From contig JBKKDM010000008.1 in NCBI GenBank assembly GCA_046707905.1, positions 3,367 to 67,366 of the forward strand: a stretch of 64,000 bases of DNA, written 5' to 3'. The translations under genes and the position numbers were made by a program. How positions within the stretch are numbered: the stretch's first letter is position 1; every line of letters starts with the position of its first letter. The DNA is from Candidatus Limnocylindrales bacterium. GTDB taxonomy: Bacteria > Chloroflexota > Limnocylindria > Limnocylindrales > CSP1-4. The notes beneath the pieces are model-generated. The model worked only from the letters and a program-made list of their open reading frames with translations. It was not told the origin of the DNA and did not search any database. Positions 12,089 through 28,936 of the stretch are shown one piece after another.

Positions 12089-13018
12089 ATGCCGACCCTC
12101 ATCGCGATCGCCTTCGCCGGCTTCATCGCTCAGCTGGTCGACGGCTCGCTGGGCATGGGATACGGGGTCACGTCGACCAGCCTGTTGCTGACGCTGGGGC
12201 TGGCGCCCGCGCTCGCGTCCGCCTCGGTCCATCTCGCGGAGATCGGCACCTCCGGGGTTTCGGGCATCTCCCACTGGCGGCTCGGGAACGTCAACGGAAG
12301 GGTGCTCCTGATGATCGGCATCCCAGGTGGCGTGGGGGCGTTCCTTGGCGCCGTGGTGCTCTCGAACCTGTCGCTCGATGCCGCGCGTCCATGGGTTTCG
12401 ATTGTCCTGCTGGTGCTCGGCGCGGTCATCCTGATCCGCTTTCTCCACGGCCGTCGGGTCGCGGCAGCGAAGGAGGCTGGTCTCGAAGCACCCGCCCCGA
12501 TCGGCTCGAAGGCCACCGCGACGCAACGCCGCTGGGCGCTCATCCCGCTTGGCCTCGTCGGCGGCTTCCTCGATGCCAGCGGTGGCGGTGGCTGGGGTCC
12601 GGTCACAACCTCCACGCTGATGGCCTCGAGCCGGATGCAACCGCGGAAGATCATCGGGACGGTCAGCGGCTCGGAGTTCATCGTCTCGATCTGCGCGAGC
12701 ATCGGTTTCCTGCTGGCGCTCGGTTCCGCCGGCCTCGACTTTGGGATCGTGGCGATGATGCTGCTCGGTGGCGTGATCGCGGCGCCGCTCTCCGCCTTTC
12801 TCGTGAGCCGGATGAACGACCAGGTGCTGGGGACCGGCGTCGGGGCGTTGATCATCTTCCTCAACGTCGATCGAGCGCTGTCGCTGTTCGGTGTCAATCC
12901 TTCGATCGGCCTCGCCCTGCGCGTCCTCGTGATCATCGTGGGCGTCGCCTTCGTTTCGTGGCTCTACGTTCGGAATCGCAGCCGGCGACTCGCGGCAGCA
13001 AGCACACCGGCGGCCTGA
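12089..13018 (+). CDS. TauE/SafE-family anion exporter
   Basis: AGGAGG precedes the ATG at 12089. FIAQLVDGSLGMGYGVTSTSLLL and GFLDASGGGGWGPV motifs; polytopic. Confidence 0.8.
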   Translation: MPTLIAIAFAGFIAQLVDGSLGMGYGVTSTSLLLTLGLAPALASASVHLAEIGTSGVSGISHWRLGNVNGRVLLMIGIPGGVGAFLGAVVLSNLSLDAARPWVSIVLLVLGAVILIRFLHGRRVAAAKEAGLEAPAPIGSKATATQRRWALIPLGLVGGFLDASGGGGWGPVTTSTLMASSRMQPRKIIGTVSGSEFIVSICASIGFLLALGSAGLDFGIVAMMLLGGVIAAPLSAFLVSRMNDQVLGTGVGALIIFLNVDRALSLFGVNPSIGLALRVLVIIVGVAFVSWLYVRNRSRRLAAASTPAA

Positions 13019-13080
13019 GGCCGGGACCGGGTGCCCGGCGTCGACCGCGTGGGGCAAATGTCGCTCCGAAGACTCGCGGG

Positions 13081-13536
13081 GTGAGAGTCTCCGCGAGGGC
13101 CGACTACGCGATCCGGGCGCTCCTGGAGCTGGCCTCGGCCGGGGAGGAGCCGGTTCGGGCCGAGGCCATCGCGCGCGCCCAGGCGATCCCGTCGAAGTTC
13201 CTCGAGAACCTGCTCGTCGACCTGCGTCGCTCACGCCTCGTGGTGAGCCAGCGGGGGCGGATCGGTGGCTACCGGCTCGCGAGGCCTGCCGGACAGATCA
13301 CCTTGGCGGACGTCATCCGGGCGATCGACGGGCCGCTGGCCGGCGTTCGCGACGACGCGCCCGAGGACGTCTCGTACGCAGGTGCCGCCACGGCCCTCCG
13401 GGACGTCTGGATCGCGCTCCGCGCGAGCATGCGGGCCGTGCTCGAGGCAACGACCCTGGCGGACGTGGCGACCGGGAAGCTGCCCGCGAACGTGCGGCGG
13501 CTCTTGAAGGACCCGGAGGCGTGGAGTCGCCGGTGA
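13081..13536 (+). CDS. Rrf2-family transcriptional regulator
   Basis: VRVSARADYAIRALLELA ... IPSKFLENLLVDLRRSRLVVSQRGRIGGYRLARP. GTG at 13081 is in frame within track ORF 12391-13536. Confidence 0.85.
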   Translation: MRVSARADYAIRALLELASAGEEPVRAEAIARAQAIPSKFLENLLVDLRRSRLVVSQRGRIGGYRLARPAGQITLADVIRAIDGPLAGVRDDAPEDVSYAGAATALRDVWIALRASMRAVLEATTLADVATGKLPANVRRLLKDPEAWSRR

Positions 13537-13565
13537 ACGCGCGACGTTAGCCCCGGAGCGTCGAC

Positions 13566-14111
13566 CTACTGCTCGGCGTCCTCGTCGGGCTGGCGCCGGC
13601 GGTAGAGCGGCAGCGCCCACCACAGGGCGGCGTACACGATGACCGTCACGACCGTTGCGATCGCCGCGGGGCCCGGGCCATAGACCACGTCGGTGATGAG
13701 GAAGATCGCGCAGGCGATCCCCAGCGCCACGAACGCGGTTCCGACGATAGCGAGCTGGTTCGCGTCCCGGAGCATCTGCTCCTTGCTCCGGCGTCGGAAG
13801 TTGAGCCGGTGGTAGACCGACGGCGCGATCAGCAACGCGCTCGCCAGCGCGCTCGCCGCCAGCGCAGCGAAGTACACATGCCGGGCGAGGTCCTCCAGGG
13901 CCGAGAAACCCTGCTGGAACGGCAGAATCAGGAGGAACGCGAACAGCACCTGGACGCCCGGGAGGGCCACCCGGAGCTCGTTCAGGAGCTCGATCAGCTC
14001 CCGATCCACTCGCTCCTTGCGGTTCTCGTCAGGCTTCAGGTGGCCGGTCTCGTCGATGGGCGATTGGTCTGGCACGCCCCAACTGTGCGCTACGCGGGGT
14101 TGCAAAGGCAC
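13566..14111 (-). CDS. membrane protein, DUF6328-like
   Basis: ELLNELRVALPGVQVLFAFLLILPF followed by two more TM helices. Confidence 0.6.
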   Translation of the reverse strand: MPLQPRVAHSWGVPDQSPIDETGHLKPDENRKERVDRELIELLNELRVALPGVQVLFAFLLILPFQQGFSALEDLARHVYFAALAASALASALLIAPSVYHRLNFRRRSKEQMLRDANQLAIVGTAFVALGIACAIFLITDVVYGPGPAAIATVVTVIVYAALWWALPLYRRRQPDEDAEQ

Positions 14112-14125
14112 GTGGGCGCCGTCAC

Positions 14126-14156
14126 TGAACGTTTCGAGGCAACCGCCCCGTCATAG
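14126..14156 (+). promoter_or_regulatory. ECF-type promoter candidate for pair 3 (TGAAC-N20-TCATAG)
   Basis: Same motif and spacing. The hexamer ends 4 nt before the GTG at 14160. Confidence 0.5.
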
Positions 14157-14198
14157 GCAGTGATCGTGGCGACTACGCTGCGACGCCGGAGGGGTCGA

Positions 14199-14750
14199 GT
14201 GGAACGAGACCTGGTCGAGCGGGCCCGTACAGGGGATCGCGAGGCATTCGCCGTCCTAGTGCACCAGGTAAGCGACTCGCTTTACGCGGTGGCCTACCGG
14301 ATCCTGCGCGACACGGGCCTCGCCGAGGACGCGCTGCAGAACGCCCTCGTCCTTGCCTGGCGCCGGCTGCCCAGGCTCCGGGATCCGGACCGTTTCGAGG
14401 CCTGGATCCATCGGATCCTCGTCCACGCCTGCTACGACGAGTCCCAGCGGACCCGGTCGTGGCGAACCAACGTGACCGTCCTGCCGATCGAAGGCCCGGG
14501 ACGCAGCGACGAGTCCGCGGCGATCGCCGATCGCGACGAGCTCGAGCGCGCGTACCGCCAGCTCACCGTCGAGCAGCGCGCGGTCTTCGTCCTGCACCAC
14601 TACCTCGGGCTGCCGCTCGTGGAGGTCGCCGAGCTGCTCGGCATCCCCGCCGGCACGGCTCGATCGCGACTCCACTACGCCATCGCCGGGCTCCGGCGGG
14701 CCCTCACGGCCAGGCCCGAGCCCCTCGCCCGGGAAGGACGACTCGCATGA
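14199..14750 (+). CDS. ECF sigma factor, paralog 3
   Basis: GTG at 14199 after GGAGGGG gives VERDLVERARTGDREAF, aligned with the paralog N-termini. The track start at 14160 is a possible leaderless alternative. Confidence 0.85.
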   Translation: MERDLVERARTGDREAFAVLVHQVSDSLYAVAYRILRDTGLAEDALQNALVLAWRRLPRLRDPDRFEAWIHRILVHACYDESQRTRSWRTNVTVLPIEGPGRSDESAAIADRDELERAYRQLTVEQRAVFVLHHYLGLPLVEVAELLGIPAGTARSRLHYAIAGLRRALTARPEPLAREGRLA

Positions 14751-15637
14751 CCGACGATCGAACGCTCGAACGCGCCGCGCGATCGTGGCTGGATGAGGGC
14801 CCGACCCGGGCCCCCGACCGACCCGTCGAGGACGCCCTCGCCCGGATCCAGACGACATCCCAGGAACGCGGGCTCGCACTCCGATGGAGGACTCCACCAA
14901 TGCTGTCTCGACTCGCGGTCGCCGCCGCCGTCACGGTGCTCACCGTCGGCGGGATCTATGCGGCCGGCGGCTTTACCAATCACGCCCTCCCGAGCGCGGG
15001 TGCCTCACCCACGGCGACCGCGCTCGCGAGTGTCCCGCGGCCGTGCAACTCGCAGCTGATCCCGAACTTGCTGTTGACCTCGGGCTGCACCTATGCGTCT
15101 AGCGAGTTCGTGCATCCCTTCACGGTCCGGGGAGATGCTCGTTGGCTGTCGGGCGGCGAGTTTGCCTCCGGTGCCGAGTTCACTGGCTCCGGCGCGACCG
15201 TGGAATACGCCATCGTGCAGCTCATCGTCCTCACGGCGGTCCAGGCTCCGATCTCCTGCGATGGGGGCAGCGCTCCGCCGCCACCGACCGTCGTGCCGAC
15301 GTCCGCCGTCGAGTACCTCGCCTGGCTCGACACGATCGCGGGCGTTGCCCTGCCTCGACAATCGACGACCTTCGGGGGGCTGCCGGCCACACGTGTCGAC
15401 ATCACGTCGCGGGAGACCGAGTGTCCACCAGATTCCTACCCAGGCTGGGTTGGCCAGTCTGGCGTCGGCGCAAACGGGGAGATGCTCGAAGCGAGTTGCT
15501 TCGGTTCGTGCGCGGTGTATGTCGTGGAGGACGGCGACCTGCTGCTTGTCGCGACGGTCAGCGTCCAAGGCCACGAAGGCATCCAATTGAGCCCGCCGGT
15601 CGCCGCGTTCCTCGACGGTCTCCGCTTCGCTCCCTGA
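14747..15637 (+). CDS. single-pass membrane partner of ECF sigma 3
   Basis: ATGA overlap. WLDEGPTRAPDRPVEDALARIQTTSQERGLALRWR plus one TM helix. Cys-rich ectodomain ending LDGLRFAP. The track ORF start at 14459 overlaps the sigma gene. Confidence 0.65.
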   Translation: MTDDRTLERAARSWLDEGPTRAPDRPVEDALARIQTTSQERGLALRWRTPPMLSRLAVAAAVTVLTVGGIYAAGGFTNHALPSAGASPTATALASVPRPCNSQLIPNLLLTSGCTYASSEFVHPFTVRGDARWLSGGEFASGAEFTGSGATVEYAIVQLIVLTAVQAPISCDGGSAPPPPTVVPTSAVEYLAWLDTIAGVALPRQSTTFGGLPATRVDITSRETECPPDSYPGWVGQSGVGANGEMLEASCFGSCAVYVVEDGDLLLVATVSVQGHEGIQLSPPVAAFLDGLRFAP

Positions 15638-15716
15638 GAAGGAGCCCGCTGGTCGGGCGACCCACATGCCACAGCCATAGACTGGCCTTCGCAGATCGCG
15701 GAGGCCAGTCGAGTCC

Positions 15717-16940
15717 ATGTACTACGTCCGCCACGGTTCGATCCCCCAGCAGCGCCACACCCAGCACCGCCAGCCCGATGGCAGCCTCTACGCCGAGGAG
15801 CTGTTCGGGGTCGAGGGGTTCTCGGGCCGCAGCTCGCTGCTCTACCACCTCGTGCCGCCGACGCGGACGCACAAGATCGAGCCGGTCCGGGAGATCAAGC
15901 TCGAGGCCGCGGACGACAAGGCCCATCGCCACCACCTGACCAAGACCGGCGCAGTCGAGCCCAAGGGCGACGCGATCTCGGGGCGGATCCCCCTGTACTT
16001 CAACCACGACGTCGTGTTCGGGATCGTCCGACCGGCCGAGGCGATGCCCGAGAACCAGTTCTACCGCAACGGCGTCGCGGACGAGATGCTCTTCATCCAT
16101 GAGGGCTCGGGCGTCTGCGACACCGTCTTCGGGCCGCTGCGGTACGGCCCCGGCGCCTACCTCGTCCTGCCCATCGGCACGACCTGGCGGCTCGAGCCCG
16201 ACGTTGGCTCAGCGCAGCGAATCCTGTACCTCGAGGCGCCGTCGGAGATCGAGCCGCCGAAGCGCTATCGAAACGACTACGGCCAGCTGCTCGAGCATTC
16301 GCCGTACTCGCAGCGCGACCTCGACGCGCCCGAGGATGTCGCGCCGCGTGACGAGCGCGGGGAGTTCGTGGTCCACGTCCGCTCGACCGACCGACTGACG
16401 GCCTACCACTTCGAGCATCACCCGTTCGACGTCGTCGGCTGGGACGGCTACCTCTGGCCGTTCCGGTTCAACATCGCGAACTTCCAGCCGATCACCGGCA
16501 GAGTCCACCAGCCGCCGCCGGTCCACCAGACGTTCCAGGCCCGGAACTTCGTCGTCTGCTCGTTCGTGCCCCGGAAGTTCGACTACCACCCCCTCGCGAT
16601 CCCGGCGCCCTACAACCACTCGAACATCAACAGCGACGAGGTCATCTACTACGTCGCCGGTAACTTCATGAGCCGCCGCGGGGTCGACATCGCCTCGTTC
16701 ACGCTCCACCCCGCCGGGATCCCGCACGGACCGCACCCGGGCTCGGTGGAGGCGTCGATCGGCAAGGAGGGGACGGAGGAGCTCGCCGTGATGGTCGACA
16801 CGTTCCATCCGCTCCATCTCACGAAGGCGGCGATGGAGCTCGACGACGACCGCTACCCGTACTCGTGGATCCCGCCGGAGGATGCTGAAGGACACGCCTC
16901 CGAGCTCGCGGAGCGAGGCCCGGAGGCATTTCCCGACTGA
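15717..16940 (+). CDS. hmgA: homogentisate 1,2-dioxygenase
   Basis: MYYVRHGSIPQQRHTQHR, FVPRKFDYHPLAIPAPYNHSNINSDEVIYY, HPAGIPHGPHPG. Confidence 0.9.
   Translation: MYYVRHGSIPQQRHTQHRQPDGSLYAEELFGVEGFSGRSSLLYHLVPPTRTHKIEPVREIKLEAADDKAHRHHLTKTGAVEPKGDAISGRIPLYFNHDVVFGIVRPAEAMPENQFYRNGVADEMLFIHEGSGVCDTVFGPLRYGPGAYLVLPIGTTWRLEPDVGSAQRILYLEAPSEIEPPKRYRNDYGQLLEHSPYSQRDLDAPEDVAPRDERGEFVVHVRSTDRLTAYHFEHHPFDVVGWDGYLWPFRFNIANFQPITGRVHQPPPVHQTFQARNFVVCSFVPRKFDYHPLAIPAPYNHSNINSDEVIYYVAGNFMSRRGVDIASFTLHPAGIPHGPHPGSVEASIGKEGTEELAVMVDTFHPLHLTKAAMELDDDRYPYSWIPPEDAEGHASELAERGPEAFPD
16830..16940 (+). repeat. direct repeat copy 1, the native 3' end of hmgA including an embedded hairpin
   Basis: 111 nt that re-occur at 24286-24396, with about 15 mismatches by my hand count. 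Hairpin GCCTCCG..CTCGC-GGA-GCGAG..CGGAGGC. Confidence 0.8.
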
Positions 16941-17267
16941 CCTTCGCGGCGTACGCTCGCCGGGATGGACTCTCGAGCCGATGCGCCCGCCGTTGATGAC
17001 GCGCCTGCCGCATCCGAGACGAGCGATATCCGCAGTTCCGGTCGGGACGTGGACCTGGCCGGCCGCGACCTCCTCGAGCTTGCGCGTCTCGCTGCTGCTG
17101 CTGGCGACGCGGGCGCCGCACAGGCGTTGGTAACAGGCGCGCTGGGCTCCACCGAACCCGCCGTGGCAGGCGAGGCTGCCACGCTTTCGCTGCGGGCCGA
17201 TGGAACCCCCGAGGGCGCCCGACCGCGACTGCGGCGCGGACGGCGCGGCGAGGCAGAGCCCCGCTAG

Positions 17268-19463
17268 CTATCTCGGCGCCAAACCCTCGCCCCGCTCGGG
17301 CTTCGCGTCGGCCGCCGGTCCGCCGCCGTCCGGGCGATTGCTCGCGTTGCGTCGCCCGATCTCGGCATCGGTCTTGTTGTCGCCAACGTTCTTCAACGTG
17401 GCTTGCCGGGTAACCTCGTCGAGTCCGCGAATGTATTCCGACATCTCCGACGCGATGCCCGCAATCGACGCCCCCGAGGGTTCGGCGCTCCCGCCGCGAG
17501 GGTCACCGCCCTCATTCAATTGCGGTCGGTCCCTTCCGTTCGGGCCGAGACCTTCATTTGGCGTCGCCGGACTTGTCTTGGCGACGTCGGTGGGCGTGGC
17601 AACTTTTGTCTGTTCACCGGTGGGCGAGGTCGTTTCGGGACGCTGCCCGCTGGTCTTTGGAGCTCCCGAGCCGCCTGCCGGCAGCGTCCACGCGTACCGG
17701 CCGAGCGCGAGCTTCTCCCTGAGCAGCGCGTTGCCCTCGGATCGAAGCTCGGCCCTCTCCTGGACCGTGGCAGCGGTCTGACCGGATTCCGCCTCGCGTG
17801 CTTCCACTGCGGCGATCCGTTCTTGCACATTCGCGATCTTGCTGTCGACCTCGGCTCGCATCTCCTGCGGCGTCTTCGCGGGATCCGCGGCTTTCGGGGC
17901 CTCGGCCGTCGTCGGGGCCCCATTCCGCTCGGTCGGCGGATCTGCGGCGTTCCCCTCGGTCGGCGTGCCGGCGGGCGTGCGCTCCGTCGGCGCGGCCGCT
18001 GGATCGCGTTCGGTGGGCGGGGCGGAGTCCGAAGGCGCCGGCCGTTCTCCTGGCATTGCCGAAGGCGCGTCTGTACCCGAGCCGGCAACCGTCGGTGGTC
18101 CTGCTTCGGCATTTGGTCCAGCAGGCGCCTGCGAAGCCCCGGCCCCATCCGTCGTCTTCGGAGCCGCTGAAGTGACCTCGGTCACCGCGCCCCCGGGACC
18201 GATTTCGGGTCCGCCGCGGACCTGGGCGTGGATCGGCCCATCTGCAGCGCCCGCCTCAACGGCAGTTCGCGCTTCCTGCGTCTTGCCGAGCGGGTCCACG
18301 GCCTGAGGCGCTTCCTGCGTCTTGCCGAGCGGGTCGACGGGCTTGGGGCCTTCGGCCTTCGGGCCTTCCGGTTTCGGTGCTTCGGGAGCGGGGCTGCCAC
18401 CGGGCTTGACCGCTTCCGTCCGGGCGCCATCGACCATCAGGGTGGTGTCCCGGACCTCTTTGGTGAACCCTCCCACGAGCTCGGCCGCACCCTTGAAGCC
18501 GCCCTTGATATCGCCGCGATCGAATGCCGTGAGGGTCTGATCGAGCTTCTCCGCGGAGCCGCCGAACGGAACATGCTTCATTCCTTCGTCCGCAGCCGCC
18601 AGAGCCGCGTCAGCGGTGGTTGAACCCTTCGACTTCTCCTGGATGAACGTGATGGCAGCTTCTCGAGCGCTTCCGCCGACCACGGCGCCGTCCAACGCCC
18701 TTGCCCGCTTCTCAGCGATCTCGCCGATCGTTGCCGGTGAGGCGATGGCCTGCTTCAGGTCCTTCACGTCCTGGGCGATCCCGGCGCCAGGAGTGCTCTG
18801 CCAGGCGACATTGGCCGAGCCCTCCACGATGCCCTCGACAGCGGCCTTCGGGTTTTCCGCCGTCTGTTGGGCGACGGTCGCGACGGGGTCGACTACGGAC
18901 GCCACCTTGCCTGCAGCGGCGTCGTAGGTCTTCTTGTCCCAATCGCGGAGTTCCTGCGCTTTGCTCGCGACGACTTGGCCGGCGCGCTCGAGCTTCTCGC
19001 CCGCGACCCTCAAGGGACTGTCCTGGCCGCCGACGCCCCGAGCGAGGCCGTCTGACGCCGGTCCGCCCTTGTACTTGTCGGCCCGCCCCGGGCCAGAAGG
19101 CGGGGCGTCCGCGGACTTCGGCGCTGGGTTCAGATCCGCCTTTGTATTCTGCTCTTCACGCCCACGGGGGCCTTGACTGAGCTGCGCATCCCGGCCGTTG
19201 GGGCGGCCGGGACCGGCGTCACCCTTGGCGCCCCCCGGCGCCGGGCGGTCGGTTCTCGCCTGCCGCTCGGCTTCACCGCCCTTTGTCCCGCCCGAAGCGG
19301 CGGACGGGTTGCGGTCTCCCGACGACTTGGCGTCACCGGACGGCCTGCCATCACCCGGGGACTTCGGGCCCAGATTGCTGTCCCGTTGCTGCGGACCGCT
19401 TTCGCGGCCGGACGGGGCATGCTCCGCTTCCTGGTGCCTGCCCTCCGAGGGTGAGTCAGGCAC
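17268..19463 (-). CDS. 731-aa low-complexity, predicted disordered protein with a central helical region (operon gene D)
   Basis: Rich in K/E/G/P/S/T/A. Lys, Asn and Gln are unusual for GC-driven spurious ORFs. No TM helix or signal peptide. Central ~200 aa (EKLERAGQVVASKAQELRDW ... FTKEVRDTTLMVDG) looks helical. GTG start. Confidence 0.7.
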   Translation of the reverse strand: MPDSPSEGRHQEAEHAPSGRESGPQQRDSNLGPKSPGDGRPSGDAKSSGDRNPSAASGGTKGGEAERQARTDRPAPGGAKGDAGPGRPNGRDAQLSQGPRGREEQNTKADLNPAPKSADAPPSGPGRADKYKGGPASDGLARGVGGQDSPLRVAGEKLERAGQVVASKAQELRDWDKKTYDAAAGKVASVVDPVATVAQQTAENPKAAVEGIVEGSANVAWQSTPGAGIAQDVKDLKQAIASPATIGEIAEKRARALDGAVVGGSAREAAITFIQEKSKGSTTADAALAAADEGMKHVPFGGSAEKLDQTLTAFDRGDIKGGFKGAAELVGGFTKEVRDTTLMVDGARTEAVKPGGSPAPEAPKPEGPKAEGPKPVDPLGKTQEAPQAVDPLGKTQEARTAVEAGAADGPIHAQVRGGPEIGPGGAVTEVTSAAPKTTDGAGASQAPAGPNAEAGPPTVAGSGTDAPSAMPGERPAPSDSAPPTERDPAAAPTERTPAGTPTEGNAADPPTERNGAPTTAEAPKAADPAKTPQEMRAEVDSKIANVQERIAAVEAREAESGQTAATVQERAELRSEGNALLREKLALGRYAWTLPAGGSGAPKTSGQRPETTSPTGEQTKVATPTDVAKTSPATPNEGLGPNGRDRPQLNEGGDPRGGSAEPSGASIAGIASEMSEYIRGLDEVTRQATLKNVGDNKTDAEIGRRNASNRPDGGGPAADAKPERGEGLAPR
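18261..18338 (-). repeat. 2 x 39-nt in-frame tandem repeat inside gene D
   Basis: Encodes VDPLGKTQEAPQA / VDPLGKTQEARTA. Nearby are degenerate PTER/PTEG repeats (APPTERDPAAAPTERTPAGTPTEGNAADPPTERNGAPT). Confidence 0.85.
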
Positions 19464-19490
19464 GAGGGCCGCCGCGACCGGATCGGCCGA

Positions 19491-19820
19491 TCATCGCTTT
19501 GGCCTTGGTATGCCGGTGGACTGCTCACTCTGCGGGTGGCGGAACCTCTCCTTCTCTTCCTCTTCCCTTCTCTTGGAGCCTTCGCTGAGCTTGTCCCCGA
19601 CCGACGTATCGACCCCCACGTTCCCACCGCCCGGACCGCCGCTCCCGAGGGCAGGCCCGGGGCTGTCGAGCTTGGTGCCGCGCTCGAGGTCGTTCGACGG
19701 CGAAGACGGACCCTCCTTGCCGGTGAGCGAGTCGCGTTCCCGGCGGCCCGCCTCGTCGGCGGCAGGCGTCTCGGACTTGCCACTCGGGGGTGTTTCCGGA
19801 ACCTTGTCGCTGTTGGTCAC
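19491..19820 (-). CDS. ~109-aa predicted disordered protein (operon gene C)
   Basis: The GTG at 19820 overlaps the TGA of the ATPase gene (GTGA). Sequence VTNSDKVPETPPSGKSETPAADEAGRRERD ... SKRREEEEKERF. The track ORF (19491-19913) extends into the ATPase gene. Confidence 0.45.
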   Translation of the reverse strand: MTNSDKVPETPPSGKSETPAADEAGRRERDSLTGKEGPSSPSNDLERGTKLDSPGPALGSGGPGGGNVGVDTSVGDKLSEGSKRREEEEKERFRHPQSEQSTGIPRPKR

Positions 19821-22800
19821 AGCCCGGCCTCCGCCATGACCCGAGCCAGGATGCGTCGCGAGGTCCTGGGCACCTTCCGGTCGTCGTCGGCAAGCATCTG
19901 CTGCTCGAAGCACAGGCAGACCTTGCGCGCCGTCGCCTCGACGGTCGCCTTGACGCTCTCGGCCATGTCCGGATCGGGGAACTCAACGAGCTCGAAGGCA
20001 GCGTCCTGGCAAACCTCCCAGGTCTCGGCCCTGGTGTTGCCCTCCGACCTTGCGTCGTTGGCATCGGCTTCGCGCCATGACGCCCGGTACCGGCCGGCGA
20101 CCACGAGGTCAGCGACGGCAGATCGGTAGAGGCAGACCCGCGGCACCTCGGTGCAGACGAGGTGACACGCGACATACGGATCGAACTCCCGCATGTCCAG
20201 CCGCCGCGCTGATTGCTGGAACGCCGCGATCCGGTCGACCGGTGCCGTCGGACCGACGAGCTTCCCGAGAAACATTTCCCGAAGCCGATTGCGGTACTCC
20301 GACGTATCCGCGTACGACCACACGCCCTGGACGCCGCGTCGGGTCGCGATCCAGTCCGAGGCGTGGCCCGCGAAGGCCCGCAGCAGATCCGTGTCAGGCA
20401 CCCTGACCGGCCGTCGGGCCCGGACCACGGCGGTGAGGTCTTCCCAGAGGCGATCGACCGCCCCGCCCTCGTCGATGCTGGACAGGACCGTCCGTGTAAC
20501 GGTCCGCTGGACGTATTCGTCCTCCGCGAGCCTCCGCGCTGCCTCGCACGCCGCGGGGGTCAGGCACGTTTCCGGGCAAAAGGGCTGCGGGAAGAACAGC
20601 GCGTCGAACCCTGCGGAGCTCCTCCAGCCCGCCATGTGCTCCCGAACCCGGCCGTCGGTCGGGGGAACCTTTGCCAGCCCATCCTTGACCAGCGGGATGC
20701 GGACCAGCAGCGGCGCGTCGTCGCCGCCGCTGAACACGACGGCCTCACCCACTTCGAGCGAGGCGAGCGCCTTGGACTGCGGCTCGTCCATCGCCATGGC
20801 CCCAGCGAGGGCCTCGCGATCGTCGGCGGACACGACGCGATGCGCGATCTTGAGGTTCGTGTTCTTCATCACGTCCGGTGCGAGCCGCACCGGGACCTGA
20901 TCGGCGATGATGACGCCCTGGCCGTACGCCCGAATCTCGGAGAGGAGGTTCGAGAAGGTCTGGACGGCCTCGCCCCGGGGATTTGCCGACTCCTCCGAAG
21001 CCTGCATCGGCACGTTCGCCAGGAGGCGGTGCGCCTCCTCGATGACGAGGAGATGGGCGAGCTCGCTCGACTGGCCCTTAGCCCGCCGGTATTCGGCAAG
21101 TCGGATCAGCAGCAGGCCGGCGAAGAAGGCCTTGTCGCCTTCGTCCCCGAGTGCCTCGAGCTCGACAACGGTCGGATGCTCGAACAGCTCCTCCGCCGGC
21201 AGCGACCGAGCGACGTCGAGCATCGCTCCCTTCGCCCCTTGTCGCAGAGATTCCAGCCGCGTGACGAGCGCGGCGCGGAGGTCTCCGGTCACCTTGTCGT
21301 CGTACCCCAGGCCCGGGATGACCTCGCCAACCTTCGCAATCAGGTCGGAGATGGTCGGGAACGCGCCCGCTGTGTCCCCGGCGTCCGAGAGGCGGGCGTT
21401 GGCGTTCGTGCGGAGGTCCCAGCCGCGGTCGGTGTAAACGTCGTGAAGGCAGCGCTCGAGGATCTGCGGCAGCGGCGTCCACATGCCGAAGGCCGCGGTG
21501 AACGCGGCGCGGAGCAGGTTGAGGTGCTCGCTGACCGTCGTTCCCGGCGGCACCTCGAACGGGTTGAGGACGAATGGCGCGACGGTCGCCTTGCCCGCCG
21601 TGAAAACGCGCACGAGCGGCCCAATGGTGGGGTGGTCTACCAGCGCGCGGTACTCGGCCTTCGCCGGCTCGATCACCATGAATGGGATGTCGTGGGCTGC
21701 CGCCTCCGACAGGAGCGACATGATCGTGTTCGTCTTGCCGGATCCGGTCAGGCCCGCGACGAACACGTGGCGCGTCAGCGACTTGAGCGTGATGCCGTAT
21801 GTCCCGGCGGTCGCTTGTCGGTGCTGGAGCACCGTACCGAGCGCGATGTTCGTGCCATCCGCGCCGTTGCTCGACGCGACGACGTCGAACCGTGGCACGA
21901 GGTTCACGTTGAAGCCCGGCGACTCGAGCTCGGGTAGATGGACGTACGCGCCCAGGCTGGCCGTCGAGAGCAGGGTCTGATACTCGAACGGTCGCCGGTA
22001 GAAGCCCGGTCCTGGCGCGCCCTCGTCATCCGGGAGCGCCCAGGCGTCGGCGAGCGCGCCTGCCTCGGGACGGTCGAAGACGCGAACCGGCTCGGGCAAC
22101 GAACCCTCACCCGACATGACACTCCGCCACGCGCTCGCCAGGCGCGGATACGAGTCCTCGGTCCCGAGGAGATAGACGCCTGTTCGCCATGCGCCGGTCG
22201 CCATGCCTTCGCCCGCGGCGCTCAGCGACGACTTCAGCAGCTCCACGTACTGCTCCATGAGCGGACTGGGTGCGAGCTCGCTCTTCGCCGCCGATTGGAC
22301 CGCGCGCATCTCGTTGAGGACGGAGTCACGGATCCGAGCAATCGCCGGCTCGGCCGCTGGATAGGCGAGCACGAGGACCGCCCATGAGCCTCCCGTCATG
22401 GACCGGATCACGCGATCGATCGGGGCCGCGCCGTCACTCTCGTCCACGCCGGTCGGAGACGGCACTCCGAGCGCGAGGCCGGCATATGGCCACGGAAGCG
22501 GGACGACCTCCGCTTCGTCGAGGTCAACGACGGGGTGAAGGCCTCGCAAGACGGAGGCAATGACGCCCACCCGACGCGACTGCACGGCGTCCGACGCCGC
22601 ACGAGCCGACCACGTACCGAGGTGGATCCGGACGCCGTCCTCGGAGCCCGTTACGAGGTACGCGATTGGAATGCGGTAGCCGTACAGCCCCGTGATGAGC
22701 TCGACGGTGGCGGGGCGCCATCGCTCGCTCCGGACCGGCCCTTGGCGCTGGCGGTACTTCTCGGACCGCCCGACGCCGCGAACACGCAGCAGGCGCCTCC

Positions 22801-22918
22801 CGCCGGGACTGGCCTCCGTCCTCGCTCCGTATGCCGGCTCGAGCTCCAGGCCCGACCGCTGGAGGTAGTCGACCTTCGCCGTCGTGACGGACTCCGTTGG
22901 CGGCGGTCGAGTCAGCAC
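19817..22918 (-). CDS. 1033-aa P-loop NTPase of the HerA/FtsK (DUF87-like) superfamily with unassigned N- and C-terminal regions (operon gene B)
   Basis: Walker A HVFVAGLTGSGKTNT (21731-21757). Walker B LLVIEEAHRLL (21029-21052). VIIADQVP, LKIAHRV. About 380 aa N-terminal and 280 aa Cys-rich C-terminal (CPETC..C, C..C..C, CLC) that I cannot assign. Confidence 0.85.
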   Translation of the reverse strand: MLTRPPPTESVTTAKVDYLQRSGLELEPAYGARTEASPGGRRLLRVRGVGRSEKYRQRQGPVRSERWRPATVELITGLYGYRIPIAYLVTGSEDGVRIHLGTWSARAASDAVQSRRVGVIASVLRGLHPVVDLDEAEVVPLPWPYAGLALGVPSPTGVDESDGAAPIDRVIRSMTGGSWAVLVLAYPAAEPAIARIRDSVLNEMRAVQSAAKSELAPSPLMEQYVELLKSSLSAAGEGMATGAWRTGVYLLGTEDSYPRLASAWRSVMSGEGSLPEPVRVFDRPEAGALADAWALPDDEGAPGPGFYRRPFEYQTLLSTASLGAYVHLPELESPGFNVNLVPRFDVVASSNGADGTNIALGTVLQHRQATAGTYGITLKSLTRHVFVAGLTGSGKTNTIMSLLSEAAAHDIPFMVIEPAKAEYRALVDHPTIGPLVRVFTAGKATVAPFVLNPFEVPPGTTVSEHLNLLRAAFTAAFGMWTPLPQILERCLHDVYTDRGWDLRTNANARLSDAGDTAGAFPTISDLIAKVGEVIPGLGYDDKVTGDLRAALVTRLESLRQGAKGAMLDVARSLPAEELFEHPTVVELEALGDEGDKAFFAGLLLIRLAEYRRAKGQSSELAHLLVIEEAHRLLANVPMQASEESANPRGEAVQTFSNLLSEIRAYGQGVIIADQVPVRLAPDVMKNTNLKIAHRVVSADDREALAGAMAMDEPQSKALASLEVGEAVVFSGGDDAPLLVRIPLVKDGLAKVPPTDGRVREHMAGWRSSAGFDALFFPQPFCPETCLTPAACEAARRLAEDEYVQRTVTRTVLSSIDEGGAVDRLWEDLTAVVRARRPVRVPDTDLLRAFAGHASDWIATRRGVQGVWSYADTSEYRNRLREMFLGKLVGPTAPVDRIAAFQQSARRLDMREFDPYVACHLVCTEVPRVCLYRSAVADLVVAGRYRASWREADANDARSEGNTRAETWEVCQDAAFELVEFPDPDMAESVKATVEATARKVCLCFEQQMLADDDRKVPRTSRRILARVMAEAGL

Positions 22919-24174
22919 GTGGCGACCAGCGTCACGACACTGCCCTCCGGCACAAGGGTGTCAGCCGCGGGGTCCGTCCGGACCGCAAGCGGCGGGGTGC
23001 CCAGGCAGAAGCCCTCGGTGATGATCGCCACGCCAAGGCCGGCTGCGACAATGTTCGCCTCGGCGTCCGCCTGCGCCATCCCGGCCACGGCGGGGACCGG
23101 CACATCCGCGGCCGGAGCCTGGGTCTCGGCGACCTCCGCGGGTCCGCTCGAGATGAAGAGCATCACCTTGGCGTCCAGGTCGAGCATGGAACCCGCTCCC
23201 GGGTCCGTTCTGATGACCGCACCCTCGGGTACCGTTTCGCTGGACTCCGTCGTTGTGCGCGACGATAGTCCCGCATCCGCGAGGGCCGATACGGCTGCCG
23301 CCTCGTCGAGGCCGGCGAGCCCGGGAACCGGGACGAGCACTGGCGCCGGCGCTGGAGGCTCGGTCGGCGGTGGAGGAGGCGGGGCGAACGTGGCTGCGCC
23401 CTGACCACCCGCGCCGGACGACACGACGACCAAGACCGAGCTCGCGCGATCTACCTCGACCGCTGCCTGGGGAGTCGTCCGGATCACCAGGCCTTGGGCG
23501 ACGGAGTCGCTGGACTCGGTCGTGGAATCGGGGATCAGGCCAGCTTGGCCGAGCTTGGAGAACGCCGCCATCTCGTTCAGCCCGACGACGTCCGGGACCA
23601 CCACGCGGCCCGCAAGGAGTGCCGGAAGCCCACCGGACATGACCGCGGCGGCCCCGCCTGCGATGACAGCGAGGAACACCGCAAGGACGGCCCATTTCAG
23701 CCAGCGCGGGAAGCCGATGACCTCCGAGGCCGTCGTCAGGTTCTTGATCTTCGAGGCATGGAGCGTCCCTCGGGACCAGCGACCAACGACCTCGACCTCG
23801 TCGCCATCCGTGACGCGACCTGCCCGACGCGCGCGCATCTCGACCGCGACGGGCGGCAGGCGGTTGCCGGCGCCGTCGTAGCGATCGACGCGCAGGAGGA
23901 GGGTCGTGACACCGTTCTCGACGGGCCGGAGCTCAACGCTTCTTGCGACGCCCCGGACCCGCCGCTTCGACGGCTCCTCGGCCGCCGCGCCGGGATCGGG
24001 GGACCGCTGCGGTCCATTGCCGCCACCGGACCTCGGCCTGCGAGCGTCAACCGGGGCGGGCTGACTCGGCGTAGCGCCAGCGGCCCATTCCTCGCGGAGA
24101 TCGAGGGGGTCACCACGCGCCCCGACCGGTTCCGCTGGCGCCTCGCCAGCTGATCCGCTTCGCCCGTCAGCCAT
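22912..24174 (-). CDS. membrane protein with cytoplasmic beta-rich module, one TM helix and three extracytoplasmic PASTA repeats; no kinase or PBP domain (operon gene A)
   Basis: ATG at 24174 (MADGRSGSAG). TM helix WLKWAVLAVFLAVIAGGAAAVM. Three ~65-aa repeats of the form VP(D/A)V(V/A)G..........AGL....T.ESS..V..G.VIRT.P. A 7-nt overlap (GTGCTGA) with gene B. The track start at 24351 runs through the hmgA remnant. Confidence 0.75.
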   Translation of the reverse strand: MADGRSGSAGEAPAEPVGARGDPLDLREEWAAGATPSQPAPVDARRPRSGGGNGPQRSPDPGAAAEEPSKRRVRGVARSVELRPVENGVTTLLLRVDRYDGAGNRLPPVAVEMRARRAGRVTDGDEVEVVGRWSRGTLHASKIKNLTTASEVIGFPRWLKWAVLAVFLAVIAGGAAAVMSGGLPALLAGRVVVPDVVGLNEMAAFSKLGQAGLIPDSTTESSDSVAQGLVIRTTPQAAVEVDRASSVLVVVSSGAGGQGAATFAPPPPPPTEPPAPAPVLVPVPGLAGLDEAAAVSALADAGLSSRTTTESSETVPEGAVIRTDPGAGSMLDLDAKVMLFISSGPAEVAETQAPAADVPVPAVAGMAQADAEANIVAAGLGVAIITEGFCLGTPPLAVRTDPAADTLVPEGSVVTLVATC

Positions 24175-24228
24175 GCTGGTCCACCGTCGCTCCCGTCCGA
24201 GGACGCGGCGCCAGGTGGGCCGTCGCGT

Positions 24229-24396
24229 GATCGCCGTGATCCACCATAGCCACCCAGTGCCCCGCTGGCTACGCCGATCCGGCAGGCGATGGAGCTGCAC
24301 GACGACCGCTGCCCGTACTCGTGGCTGCCGCCTGAGGACGAGCATGGGCACGCCTCCGAGCTCGCGGAGCGAGGCCCGGAGGCGTTTCCGGACTGA
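24229..24396 (+). pseudogene. displaced 3'-terminal fragment of a homogentisate dioxygenase gene (direct repeat copy 2)
   Basis: 24286-24396 reads in frame AMELHDDRCPYSWLPPEDEHGHASELAERGPEAFPD*. The hmgA end reads AMELDDDRYPYSWIPPEDAEGHASELAERGPEAFPD*. Weaker frameshifted similarity (tcgccgtgat) extends back to about 24229. Confidence 0.75.
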
Positions 24397-24417
24397 CGAC
24401 GCATTCCCGGGATCAGG

Positions 24418-25338
24418 TCACTCGAAGCGAACCGAGTCGATGATCGAGTTGATCTCGTCATCAAAGGTCGCGATCGGGTCGCCGTAGAGGACCTCGATGA
24501 CCAGGCGAGTCCCGCGGACGTCCACCACGACCAGGCGTTGGGCCGCGCCCGGGAGGGTGACGCCACCCACATCGCCCGTGCTCCAAACCTGAATCAGGGC
24601 GTCGCCTGTGCAGCCGGCTCCGTCCGACGGCACGGAGTTGGTGAAGTCGAATTCCTTGCCTGGCAGGCCATCGACGAGTACGTCCGTGACGGGTCCGACG
24701 GTGAACTTCGGGAGATTCGACAGCGCGGTGATGAAATCGTCGACCGTCGGGCCGAGATCGGGGACGACGATCGTGTTTCGACAGGGGTCAGCGAAGACGG
24801 CGAGTGGCACTTCGAAGTTGACGAACGCCCCGTTGGAGCCTTCCTCCGTCCGTGAGTCGATCACCATGCTGATGACGCGTGACTTGACTCCCGTCCACGC
24901 CTTCCACCCGGCGGGGACATCGAATGTCAGATCGGGCAGCTGGAAGGGCGCGCCGGCTCGATAGGTACCAGCCAGGGCGGCCCCCTCCGGCGGGAAGGTG
25001 GGAGCTGCGGCGGTGGCGCTGGCCGGCGGCAGCGTGGCTGGAGACGTGGTTGGGGAGGTGATCGGCGACGAGGTCGGGGCGGTCGTCGGGCCGCCGACGT
25101 CGCCGCCGCGGAACAGGTTCAGACCCGCCACGCCAACGATCGCGACGATCGCGATCGCGGCGGCGAGCCGTAGGGGGGTGCTCAAGGGGGAAGTCCTCCA
25201 CGGCACCGTTGCGCGGCGCCGCTGATTGGTCGTATGAATCTCGGCGAGGGCAGCCTCGAGCACGCGATCGTTCAGCTCCGTCGGTCCAGCAGTCAGCCAG
25301 CTGGATGTGATCCGATCAAAGTCACGATTCGTGGTCAT
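24418..25338 (-). CDS. single-pass membrane partner of ECF sigma 4
   Basis: ATGA overlap. WLTAGPTELNDRVLEAALAEIHTTNQRRRATVPWR plus one TM helix. Ectodomain with FADPCR and VVDVRGTRLVIEV, ending IDSVRFE. Confidence 0.65.
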   Translation of the reverse strand: MTTNRDFDRITSSWLTAGPTELNDRVLEAALAEIHTTNQRRRATVPWRTSPLSTPLRLAAAIAIVAIVGVAGLNLFRGGDVGGPTTAPTSSPITSPTTSPATLPPASATAAAPTFPPEGAALAGTYRAGAPFQLPDLTFDVPAGWKAWTGVKSRVISMVIDSRTEEGSNGAFVNFEVPLAVFADPCRNTIVVPDLGPTVDDFITALSNLPKFTVGPVTDVLVDGLPGKEFDFTNSVPSDGAGCTGDALIQVWSTGDVGGVTLPGAAQRLVVVDVRGTRLVIEVLYGDPIATFDDEINSIIDSVRFE

Positions 25339-25889
25339 GCCGAGTGCTCCCGCGAGGTATCGGTTGACGAGCGCGAGTCCGCCTCGAGGGCGGCCCGCAG
25401 CGTGTTGGTGGCGTAGTGGAGCCGCGACTTGACGGTTCCGAGCGGCACGCCGAGCTCGGCGGCCACCTCGTTCAACGTCAGGCCGAGGTAGTGGTGGAAG
25501 ACGAAGACTGCTCGCTGCTCCGGCGGCAATCGTCGGAAGCCGCGATCCAGCTGATCACGCTGGACGACACCCGCGTAGTCGTCGGTGCTCGACGCAAGGT
25601 CCGGGAGGACACGGACGTTGGCCGTCCAGCGACGGCCCCGTTTGGCTTCCCGGTAGCAGGCGTTGACGAGGAGGCGCCGCAGCCAGGCATCGAAGCGATC
25701 GACGTCCCGCAGCGTGGGCAGCTCCCGCCAGGCGAGGACGAGCGTCTGCTGGACGGCGTCTTCCGCGAGCCCGAGATCGCGCAGGATCCGAAACGCGATC
25801 GCGAGGAGTCGGTCACCAGCGGCGCGCGCCAGGCTGGCAAAGGCTTCCTCATCTCCGGCTCTCGCTCGCTCGACGAGGGCAACCTGCAC
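25335..25889 (-). CDS. ECF sigma factor, paralog 4
   Basis: GTG at 25889 after GGGAG gives VQVALVERARAGDEEAF. The promoter-like motif lies inside the longer track ORF (TTG at 25976), which favours the shorter start. Confidence 0.8.
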   Translation of the reverse strand: MQVALVERARAGDEEAFASLARAAGDRLLAIAFRILRDLGLAEDAVQQTLVLAWRELPTLRDVDRFDAWLRRLLVNACYREAKRGRRWTANVRVLPDLASSTDDYAGVVQRDQLDRGFRRLPPEQRAVFVFHHYLGLTLNEVAAELGVPLGTVKSRLHYATNTLRAALEADSRSSTDTSREHSA

Positions 25890-25933
25890 CCTCGACTCCC
25901 TTCCGCGATGCGTCCGACCTGGACGCCTACCGT

Positions 25934-25964
25934 AGATGAGACCGGAGGTGCCCGGGATGGTTCG
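25934..25964 (-). promoter_or_regulatory. ECF-type promoter candidate for pair 4 (CGAAC-N20-TCATCT)
   Basis: Same motif and spacing as the other five. Confidence 0.5.
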
Positions 25965-26010
25965 ATCCTCGGTCAACGCGCGTCAAGGACTTCGACCGTG
26001 ACGCGAGGAA

Positions 26011-27126
26011 TCAGCCGCCGTTCAGAACACCCAGCAGCGTGTCTTCTGCCGCGGCCTGGTCGACGGTGGCCACGTACTCGATGTTCGGCTCGCCGGACGT
26101 CGGACGGGTGAAACCCGACTCGGGGCCCTCCGCCTCCTCGACCTCGATTGCTGCCGGCGCGAACGCCCCGACCGGGTAGCCGGCCGCGAGCTCGGCTGCC
26201 AGGGGGTCCCAGAGGAAGGACGCGCCATCGGTCATGAACGGGTTTGCGGCGAACAGCTCTGCCACGAGCTTTGCGGCCGGACTGTCGGCTCGCTCCATCG
26301 CTCGAGCTGCGAACGCAGGGGTCAGCGGCACCTGGTTTGTCGCGTCGAGCGAGACGAAGAACGGTCGGAGCCCGCTGTCGACGACGACCTGCGCGGCGCG
26401 CGGATCGACGTAGATGTTCCATTCCGCAACATCGTTGTCTTCGGGCGCGCCGCAACACACGAGGTTGCCCGGGACGTGCAGCGCGCCGCCCATGACGTAG
26501 ACGGACGTGAGCTGCTCTCCCAGCGCAGGGTCAGCCTGGAGGGCATCCGCGAGATTCGTCAGCGGCCCGGTGGCCAGGATGACGAGATTCGGATGTTCCG
26601 CGGCGAGGCGCGAGATCAGCGCGCCCGCCGTTGCATCCGCGGCGGTTCGGTCGGTCGGCGGCAGATCGAGCTGGGAGCCCCCGTCGACGCCTTCTCGCCA
26701 GGCATCCGGAAACCTATGACTGCCAGCGAGGGGCGTCTCACGCCCGCAGGCGACGGGGATATCCGGCGCGGAGAGCCGCTCGAGCACTCGTAGCACCACG
26801 TCGACGCCCTCCGGGCAGTGCGCCTCGCCGGTCCCGGAAACCGTGATCGCGACGAGGTCGACTCCCGGCGCGCTGAGCAGGAACGCGAGCGCGACCAGGT
26901 CGTCCGGGGCGACGTCCGTGTCGAAGAGCATCGTCCGCGCGGCGGGTGTAGCGACCGACGGGACCGGAGCCATCGTCGCTTGGGGTTCGGTCGTCGCCGG
27001 CGCAGTTCCCAGCGTTCCGGTCGGACCCGGCGCCGATGGCGCCGGGCCGGTCGGGGAAGCATTGGAACAGCCCGCGAGCGCGAGGCCCAGCAGGACGGTG
27101 GCAAGCCGCGAGTCCGAACCTGGCAT
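26011..27126 (-). CDS. nucleoside hydrolase (inosine/uridine-preferring family) lipoprotein
   Basis: AAGGAG precedes the ATG at 27126. MPGSDSRLATVLLGLALAGCS (lipobox). FDTDVAPDDLVALAFLL matches the DxDxxxDD motif of nucleoside hydrolases. ILATGPLTNLA. Confidence 0.8.
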   Translation of the reverse strand: MPGSDSRLATVLLGLALAGCSNASPTGPAPSAPGPTGTLGTAPATTEPQATMAPVPSVATPAARTMLFDTDVAPDDLVALAFLLSAPGVDLVAITVSGTGEAHCPEGVDVVLRVLERLSAPDIPVACGRETPLAGSHRFPDAWREGVDGGSQLDLPPTDRTAADATAGALISRLAAEHPNLVILATGPLTNLADALQADPALGEQLTSVYVMGGALHVPGNLVCCGAPEDNDVAEWNIYVDPRAAQVVVDSGLRPFFVSLDATNQVPLTPAFAARAMERADSPAAKLVAELFAANPFMTDGASFLWDPLAAELAAGYPVGAFAPAAIEVEEAEGPESGFTRPTSGEPNIEYVATVDQAAAEDTLLGVLNGG

Positions 27127-27159
27127 GCGATGGAACTCCTTCTGGGCGAGGATCTCATC

Positions 27160-27245
27160 CCATACGGGTGTGGCGGCGACACCGAATCGTTGAAGAGTGC
27201 CCAACGGATCGCCTCCGAGGTCGCGTGGCGAGCCTCGGAGGCGTT
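27160..27245 (+). repeat. degenerate copy of the hmgA-3'-end element; core hairpin 27211-27242
   Basis: GCCTCCGAG-gtcgcgtggcgagc-CTCGGAGGC. Upstream cccatacgggtgtgg / gttgaagag resembles hmgA cccgtactcgtgg / gctgaagga. Lies just after the stop of partner 5. Confidence 0.55.
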
Positions 27246-27276
27246 GTGTTCGAACGGCCGCGGGCGGCTCCTCAGG

Positions 27277-28778: not shown

Positions 28779-28809
28779 AGGTGGCGCGCATCGGGTGCGC
28801 CGTCCGAGC

Positions 28810-28840
28810 CTACAGAGGGGCGAGCGTCACCCAGTGTTCA
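28810..28840 (-). promoter_or_regulatory. ECF-type promoter candidate for pair 5 (TGAAC-N20-CTGTAG)
   Basis: Same motif and spacing. Sits immediately next to the hairpin repeat at 28847-28885. Confidence 0.5.
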
Positions 28841-28846
28841 AAGAGA

Positions 28847-28885
28847 ACGCCTCCGAGCTCGCGGTGCGGGGCTCGGAGGCATTCC
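28847..28885 (+). repeat. short degenerate copy of the hmgA-3'-end hairpin element
   Basis: acGCCTCCGAGCtcgcggtgcgggGCTCGGAGGCattcc. It shares 18 and 10 identical nt with the hmgA copy on either side of the loop. Lies after the stop of partner 6. Confidence 0.55.
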
Positions 28886-28936
28886 AGAATGCGAGGACTA
28901 CTTGGGACCCGTGACCTCGACCCCACGAGGGACGAT

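Follow-up and report, generated by a model that had tools for sequence, protein, structure and literature searches.

A 64-kb stretch of contig JBKKDM010000008.1 from Candidatus Limnocylindrales bacterium, referred to below as the window, carries a divergent hmgA-like gene whose last codons recur on the far side of a 7.3-kb block. Five genes make up this block: sp_p1, g731, g140, a gene for a HerA/FtsK-like ATPase and a gene for a membrane protein with PASTA domains (Table 1). Beyond the second repeat copy lie tandem operons that encode extracytoplasmic function (ECF) sigma factors and their anti-sigma proteins. On the minus strand, the order after hmgA is g731, g140, ATPase and PASTA protein; antiB-sigB; nucleoside hydrolase; antiC-sigC; and antiD-sigD. 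The block is best described as foreign genes inserted at the 3' end of hmgA, and the duplicated gene end contains a hairpin that recurs at the ends of operons converging on this gene.

Related genomes provide the context for these observations. Searching species-representative genomes with the hmgA protein as query yields 80 loci with 79-93% amino acid identity, most of them labelled as Chloroflexota, Chloroflexia or Limnocylindria/Limnocylindrales metagenome-assembled genomes. These 80 hmgA-like loci from Limnocylindria (L001-L080), each with at most 10 kb of flank, form the comparison set. Besides the window, two metagenome contigs from other samples, L081 and L143, carry the block at the hmgA locus. 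The remaining operon-bearing contigs (L082, L083, L125-L142 and L144) contain neither hmgA nor the hairpin and are thus uninformative about the junctions.

The repeat that brackets the block is the top direct repeat of the window. Its copies A and B span 113 nt at 88% identity in a repeat search, and blastn within the window aligns them at 87.6% over the same length with an E value of 4.5e-36. The original prediction, made from the sequence of the window by eye, had placed a 111-nt repeat with about 15 mismatches at 16830-16940 and 24286-24396. Formal alignment upholds the repeat, but corrects its extent to 16829-16941 and 24285-24397 and counts 14 mismatches. None of these falls in the central stretch of 36 nt, compared to 11 in the 62 nt of the 5' part. 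Translation and blastn bear out that the second copy retains the hmgA reading frame and TGA stop, and the similarity ends on the right side at the stop codon as had been claimed, reaching one base past it. The two peptides quoted for the copies had been swapped: ...AMELDDDRYPYSWIPPEDAEGH... belongs to copy A, in the hmgA gene, and ...AMELHDDRCPYSWLPPEDEHGH... to copy B. The proposed decay of a frameshifted similarity upstream of 24286 is not found. Local and global alignments of the DNA upstream of 24285 score no better than shuffles and reveal no frameshifted homology, so the left boundary of copy B is sharp.

Copy B is intergenic, because the most likely start of the PASTA gene is ATG 24174; a 57% amino acid match to the sequence just upstream of the L081 ATPase gene begins near this position. 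About five changes are private to copy B, and two of them alter residues that are invariant in hmgA (D376H and Y380C). Copy A shares derived states, such as an ATC codon for Ile, with the hmgA gene of operon-bearing L143; copy B keeps the majority states.

No protein or nucleotide homology to positions 16942-24284 is found in any of the 80 related hmgA loci or their 10-kb flanks. In three of these loci (L071, L076 and L064), hmgA directly adjoins a convergent anti-sigma gene, whose N-terminal part matches that of antiB, and a sigB orthologue. These orthologues are closer to the sigB of the window (84-85% amino acid identity) than is the sigB of L081 (79%). In L005, L022 and the P0253 contig, a nucleoside hydrolase gene directly follows hmgA. 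The hmgA of the P0253 contig is 91% identical, and closer relatives sought through the 90% protein cluster reached 91% at best. Insertion of the block at the hmgA 3' end, which had been predicted, is supported by its absence from the 80 relatives together with the fact that its ATPase is closest to actinobacterial proteins.

Both junctions of the block are seen elsewhere. In L143, the left junction reads ATPase (89% amino acid identity), g103, g654, sp_p1 homologue and hmgA 3' end. In L081, the right junction reads EamA transporter, sigB (79%), antiB, hairpin plus tail (see below), PASTA protein and ATPase. These independent observations rule out an assembly artefact. The window, L081 and L143 are only 76-79% identical to each other in nucleotide sequence, and the four-fold degenerate sites of their ATPase genes are essentially saturated (0.42-0.49 identity versus a random expectation of 0.38). 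The shared arrangement is therefore either old or has been exchanged.

The original prediction described the interval as a four-gene operon with a 327-bp spacer. This spacer holds a conserved open reading frame (ORF) of 100 codons, sp_p1, which raises the number of genes to five. Over 57 amino acids, its product is 65% identical to that of an ORF adjoining the operon in L141, and gene calling places a 103-aa gene at the sp_p1 position in L143. No sp_p1 homology occurs in the 80 operon-less loci, and by this distribution sp_p1 appears to belong to the gene cluster as its fifth member. The protein contains the motif RDVDLAGRDL..AAAAGDAGAA, and its gene is convergent with g731. In L141, ORFs beyond the sp_p1 homologue (3442-4706, minus strand) appear transposase-like by eye, with a helix-turn-helix followed by a DDE-like segment.

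Within the block, g731 evolves very fast compared to the ATPase gene. The ATPase retains 85-89% amino acid identity to its counterparts in L081 and L143 (85% to L081 by tblastn), while g731 is only 33% identical to its L081 homologue and has no match in Pfam, NCBIfam or PADLOC. Short in-frame tandem repeats with units of 39, 15 and 27 nt are present in g731 at 18256-18376 and 17923-17974, which fits a repetitive, disordered protein. The GTG start of g140 and the stop codon of the ATPase gene overlap as GTGA (19817-19820), which suggests that the two genes may be translationally coupled; an identical 4-nt overlap is found in L081. Every NCBIfam match to the ATPase is far under its cutoff. PADLOC returns only weak, partial matches to HerA and to PASTA domains, and assignment of the operon to a defence system was rejected on this basis.

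Beyond a few metagenome contigs, the nearest relatives of the ATPase are actinobacterial, with 70% identity in Parafrankia, 67% in Nocardia and about 60% in Streptomyces. The operon is, judged by these affinities, foreign and of a type common in Actinobacteria. A conserved, uncharacterised cluster of this kind is widespread in that phylum (17268-24174, minus strand, in the window; L081-L083 and L125-L144). It consists of a membrane or signalling partner with PASTA or FHA domains, a HerA/FtsK-superfamily ATPase of about 1030 aa, a small disordered protein and a large low-complexity protein. On Actinomycetes-type contigs, the operon resides among housekeeping or other ordinary chromosomal genes and is not accompanied by mobile-element genes.

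Composition does not single out the block. Overall GC content is flat at 0.68-0.71 throughout. The GC content at third codon positions (GC3) is 0.76 in g731, 0.80 in g140, 0.86 in the ATPase gene and 0.81 in the PASTA gene, compared to 0.79-0.93 in the flanks. A suggested preference of the distal genes for codons ending in A or T thus holds only in part. The interpretation of the block as a compositional island was discarded.

Table 1. Features at the hmgA locus, with positions in the window
Feature	Position	Strand	Evidence
hmgA-like gene, divergent homogentisate 1,2-dioxygenase, 407 aa	15717-16940	+	Pfam HgmA_N; orthologues in 80 Limnocylindria genomes
Repeat copy A: last 37 hmgA codons, stop and one extra base	16829-16941	+	Repeat search, blastn
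Hairpin core A, inside hmgA coding sequence, encodes ASELAERGPEA	16896-16927	-	Fold -34 kcal/mol, z -3.6
sp_p1, small conserved ORF, 100 aa, in supposed spacer	16965-17267	+	Homologues beside operon in L141 and L143
g731, large, low-complexity, fast-evolving protein; last operon gene	17268-19463	-	GC3 0.76
g140, small disordered protein, 109 aa from GTG 19820	19491-19820	-	Homologues in L081, L139 and L143
HerA/FtsK-superfamily ATPase, 1033 aa	19817-22918	-	Pfam DUF87 and FtsK_SpoIIIE
Membrane protein: cytoplasmic N-domain, one transmembrane segment, three PASTA domains; first operon gene	22912-24174	-	Pfam PASTA (three)
Repeat copy B: non-coding relic of hmgA 3' end	24285-24397	+	Repeat search, blastn; sharp left edge
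Hairpin core B, 35 nt past antiB stop (24418)	24352-24383	-	Identical to core A; -35.1 kcal/mol, z -4.65
sigB (25335-25976) and antiB (24418-25338), ECF sigma/anti-sigma pair right of insert	24418-25976	-	Pfam Sigma70_r2/r4
Hairpin copy C, 35 nt past antiC stop, improved stem	27211-27242	-	-33.9 kcal/mol, z -3.9
Hairpin copy D, 57 nt past antiD stop, improved stem	28849-28880	-	-31.1 kcal/mol, z -4.6

The repeat was originally taken to have two members, but its core has four in the window. The central 32 nt (GCCTCCGAGCTCGCGGAGCGAGGCCCGGAGGC) recur as copies C and D, and a slightly longer core of 37 nt can be followed at 27209-27245 and 28847-28883. No match to this core was obtained in 100 shuffles. 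All four copies are confined to hmgA and the 12 kb that follow it. Each forms a stable hairpin on the minus strand. This fold uses G-U pairs and is far stronger than that of the plus strand: for core A, the RNA in the hmgA sense reaches only -25 kcal/mol with a z score of -1.2. In copies C and D, sequence changes have lengthened the stem.

Additional copies in relatives share this placement. In L001, L002, L005 and L038, extragenic copies consist of the hairpin followed by a 13-nt hmgA tail (RTTYCCSGACTGA) and begin at the 5' edge of the hairpin. They reside between sigma/anti-sigma modules downstream of hmgA, in hmgA orientation; one L002 copy occupies the copy D position, upstream of the sigC homologue. 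Across the 80 loci, no extra copy is present in 566 kb of upstream sequence, versus four (by a scan allowing no indels) or seven (by blastn) in 539 kb of downstream sequence. In L081, the hairpin and tail at the copy B position are identical at 45-46 of 51 nt, although the adjacent ATPase gene is saturated at its four-fold sites, and the rest of that spacer is unalignable. A dispersed repeat of the repetitive extragenic palindrome or miniature inverted-repeat transposable element type was rejected, as copies are confined to hmgA and its downstream side in both the window and the 80 loci. Rfam gives no match at E <=1 in 13000-32000.

The hairpin has a bimodal distribution over the 80 orthologues. 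In about 45 of them, there are 0-4 mismatches and the minus strand folds strongly; in about 35, there are five or more mismatches and the hairpin is absent, although the encoded peptide remains similar. The same division is evident in the last 15 codons, which split the orthologues into two classes. The hairpin is near-invariant in the EASELAERGPEAFPD class and absent from the EARELSERGPEAFPD-like class, where synonymous changes are numerous and some amino acids differ as well. A universal invariance of these nucleotides in hmgA was accordingly rejected, as third-position entropy is not reduced over all orthologues. Over 25 distinct hairpin sequences, 95.4% of cells pair and two pairs have compensatory double changes, although this covariation gives modest support, since 3-12 of 500 shuffles reach the observed values.

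The positions of the hairpin resemble those of transcription terminators. As in intrinsic terminators, stable GC-rich stem-loops lie on the transcribed strand 35-57 nt past the stop codons of antiB, antiC and antiD. Terminators that lack U-tracts have been reported in high-GC phyla, where both such 'I-shaped' intrinsic terminators and bidirectional terminators of convergent genes occur. The hairpin studied here shares several properties with them, including a stem-loop that is stronger on the strand of the converging operon, a location in the 3' end of the opposite gene and compensatory or stem-improving changes. It differs in that it lies in coding sequence, is near-identical at several operon ends and carries a conserved 13-nt tail, and in being known from sequence alone. 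The hairpin is probably a terminator-like stem-loop of the operons converging on hmgA, as predicted from its fold and location. Such a role would account for the asymmetry between strands, the location past stop codons and the retention of the hairpin both in copy B (0/36 mismatches versus 11/62) and in L081. It probably also serves as homology used for recombination.

On the minus strand, most extragenic hairpins are followed at a distance of about 10-25 nt by a TTGAAC-like hexamer that precedes the next gene, in most cases one for a sigma factor. Examples are found at 27190-27210 and 28830-28848 in the window and beside the extragenic copies of L005 and L038. The hexamer is a candidate -35 element for the promoter of each module.

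The surroundings of hmgA are rich in ECF modules. At least five sigma/anti-sigma pairs are encoded within 25 kb (24418-30843, minus strand; 14160-15637, plus strand; 7696-9281, minus strand), and three of them follow hmgA in a tandem array. Each related genome examined has its own number and order of modules, which marks the region from hmgA to the EamA transporter gene (31417-32385) as an apparent rearrangement hot spot. The 60-100 N-terminal residues of antiB are 56-58% identical to those encoded by genes in L071 (1912-2754), L076 (11237-11953) and L081 (1003-1866), and the C-terminal domain, which is presumably sensory, bears no relation from one genome to the next. The pattern is as if sensor domains had been swapped next to the hairpin. 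A convergent ECF sigma gene lies no more than 3 kb downstream of 21 of 32 hairpin-form hmgA ends, compared to 6 of 23 ends of the other form (Fisher p 0.006, uncorrected for phylogeny).

The hmgA-like protein itself is very divergent. Its Pfam HgmA_N score of 27 bits exceeds the cutoff of 20.2, with only part of the domain matched, and its TIGR01015 score of 41 bits is far under the cutoff of 510. An FAA hydrolase gene (10899-11951) and an HPPD-like gene (6420-7592) are located nearby, and together the three genes suggest tyrosine catabolism. This pathway context supports the name homogentisate 1,2-dioxygenase as a putative activity.

Direct repeats of a target gene's 3' end that leave its reading frame and stop intact are a hallmark of integrative elements and are present here. 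Pfam scans for recombinases covered the four large genes of the operon, the ORF in the spacer, ten ORFs of at least 210 aa in alternative frames between the repeats and about 45 GC3-supported ORFs of the window. No integrase, excisionase, transposase or other recombinase domain was found in any of these, in agreement with the original prediction, which had recognised none. Likewise, no recombinase is encoded between the repeats in L081 or L143, and no tRNA or tmRNA gene that could have served as a target is present in the window. The hairpin core has an exact match in no viral contig, and a phage or viral attP carrying the core was rejected for this reason. A looser inverted-repeat pattern matched 41 unrelated viral contigs and was uninformative. 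The prediction that the block is a defective element, or one mobilised in trans, finds no support in these results, the unremarkable composition, the same gene set at the same junctions in L081 and L143 and the ordinary chromosomal setting of the operon elsewhere. Nor is there support for an integrative element that is self-mobile or degraded. The structure is a fairly ordinary insertion scar rather than a mobile element.

The history that we favour, with a probability of roughly 0.6, is that the block was inserted at the end of hmgA by host recombination, that copy B was left beyond it and that the hairpin was kept as a terminator. In the ancestral arrangement, the hairpin would lie inside the coding end of hmgA and act as a U-tract-poor terminator, or as another 3'-end stem-loop, of operons running towards this gene. 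The five-gene block entered between the hmgA stop codon and the convergent sigB-antiB operon. Insertion took place through the hmgA 3' end; the gene retained a complete end in copy A, and a second end of 113 nt stayed on the far side of the block as copy B. A terminator role would explain why the hairpin has remained unchanged in both copies, and persists at the ends of two more operons, amid the decay of the remaining copy B sequence. Homology for the joint may have been furnished by the hmgA end, above all by the 36-nt identical stretch around the hairpin. The flanking repeats would also permit clean loss of the block.

Two routes to such a joint can be envisaged. In the first, a single crossover would take place with a circular intermediate carrying an hmgA end. 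In the second, homology-facilitated illegitimate recombination would take place with DNA from a relative that already held hmgA, sp_p1 and the operon. The second route would explain the sharp left edge of copy B as the illegitimate joint, and the right edge at the stop codon as the place where shared homology ends in a hypervariable region. It would also explain why copy A shares derived states with L143 while copy B has majority states plus private changes, and why the sigB of the window is closer to operon-less L071, L076 and L064 than to L081. Homology-facilitated illegitimate recombination has reportedly been characterised in studies of natural transformation (de Vries and Wackernagel 2002). 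Like Campbell-type single crossovers mediated by RecA, it would use one homologous anchor, here hmgA, and one joint to place foreign DNA within a partial duplication of the anchor. Neither process requires an element-encoded enzyme, and the block has none. Unlike the cases studied during transformation, this one is deduced from genomic sequence, and the donor arrangement is documented in part, by L143.

Several observations weigh against this history. A comparison of operon-less loci was proposed with the original prediction as a way to find the empty site. Such loci exist, but hmgA joined directly to the sequence after 24396 is not among them. The stretch immediately right of copy B has no homologous DNA in any relative, and no exact empty site can be given because antiB has a different C-terminal domain in each genome. 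In the 62-nt part, copy B is as near to the hmgA ends of several other species as to copy A, with ties at 50-51 of 62 positions, and assigning it to self or foreign origin by nearest neighbours was abandoned. The preservation of these 62 nt is far greater than a neutral relic dating back to the split from L081 and L143 would allow, which implies either selection or a later event in the lineage of the window. Gene conversion, re-insertion or exchange of the right-hand block are candidates for such an event. A mosaic test of hmgA, with matches of 297/327 for L143, 294 for L015 and 282 for L001, gives a weak hint of mosaicism. With respect to the hairpin, a consensus terminator scan returned nothing, which reflects the lack of a U-tract after the stem; a U-rich run follows only copy D. 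Third-position conservation of the hairpin codons is not raised across all 61 orthologues of the same length, only a subset of which has the hairpin, and the Fisher test above does not take account of phylogeny.

An alternative that we regard as unlikely derives copy B from tandem duplication of a unit comprising the hmgA 3' end, an anti-sigma gene and a sigma gene, for example, by unequal crossing-over between hairpins, a process that probably gave rise to the sigma/anti-sigma array. The foreign operon would later have replaced the proximal module. The paralogous ECF modules that follow hmgA in tandem, each ending in an hmgA-derived hairpin plus tail in the window, L001, L002, L005 and L038, are what such duplications would generate, as are extra copies located solely downstream of hmgA and in its orientation. 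However, this scheme needs two events, and the replacement must start exactly one base past the hmgA stop. No remnant of a sigma or anti-sigma gene is found in 16942-17267 or 24175-24284. Furthermore, the other extragenic copies begin at the edge of the hairpin, whereas copy B includes 67 more nucleotides of hmgA.

Distinctly unlikely is a site-specific integrative element, whose integrase, now lost or encoded elsewhere, would have joined an attP carrying an hmgA end to the hmgA 3' end as attB. Genomic islands and integrative elements insert at the 3' ends of tRNA, tmRNA or protein-coding genes and carry a replacement end, which yields attL and attR. The locus is like these islands in having foreign DNA within gene-3'-end repeats, an intact gene with its frame and stop restored, an identical 36-nt core, where crossover could have occurred, between diverged flanks, and relatives that lack the insert. 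It is unlike them in having no integrase or excisionase in the window, L081 or L143, where the recombinase searches described above came back empty, no core in any viral contig and no compositional anomaly. Its cargo is an ordinary chromosomal operon that is found elsewhere without mobile-element genes. The same five genes, and nothing else, lie between repeats in three lineages with saturated synonymous sites, so the block is not a recently decayed element. The insertion at hmgA appears to be old, either vertically retained or exchanged, and bears no sign of current mobility.

Still less probable is a dedicated system in which the hairpin and its 13-nt tail form a strand-specific recombination site. 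An enzyme encoded elsewhere would use this site to gain, lose and swap operons after hmgA, as in an integron-like cassette platform. The resemblance to attC sites and cassette arrays lies in hairpin repeats that follow each tandem unit beside a fixed anchor gene, with variable unit content. Hairpin plus tail marks module limits in the hypervariable region between hmgA and EamA in many genomes, the operon is patchy among lineages and the tail is conserved even in non-coding copies. Sequence conservation of the hairpin (81-100%) also far exceeds that of the sigma paralogues of the modules (55-60% amino acid identity). Against this, no recombinase was found nearby, including IntI with its attI, and no defined cleavage site is apparent. 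By inspection, the four copies and their flanks show AAC- and GTT-like triplets abutting the stem, but not the R and L boxes of attC architecture (RYYYAAC ... GTTRRRY). The R''-L''/L'-R' pattern and extrahelical bases are missing, and neither Rfam nor another known family gives a match. Moreover, only four to seven extragenic copies occur across 80 loci, and the units at hmgA are whole operons with their own promoters. Both the conservation of the hairpin and its location past stop codons would follow from a terminator function, and the rearrangements from homologous recombination by the host. Chance similarity or a chimeric assembly has a negligible probability: the source is probably a metagenome-assembled contig, which is all that favours a chimera, and the E value, the shuffled controls and the recovery of both junctions from other samples in L081 and L143 argue against both.

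Insertion by host recombination, the history favoured here, represents horizontal gain of an uncharacterised actinobacterial-type operon, with its PASTA or FHA partner and HerA/FtsK-like ATPase of about 1030 aa, by an uncultured soil lineage of Chloroflexota. Scars in which foreign genes are flanked by a duplicated gene end are already known, and this locus is a new example of the kind. It illustrates that duplication of a gene end around foreign DNA need not imply a mobile element. What it adds is a duplicated core in the form of a functional-looking hairpin, common to a coding 3' end and to convergent operons, at a locus where modules are reshuffled. The hairpin seems to be both a conserved RNA stem-loop and a portable piece of homology in a rearrangement hot spot. 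If this dual role is true, it would help to explain how arrays of sigma/anti-sigma modules are built and reshuffled beside hmgA in Limnocylindria.

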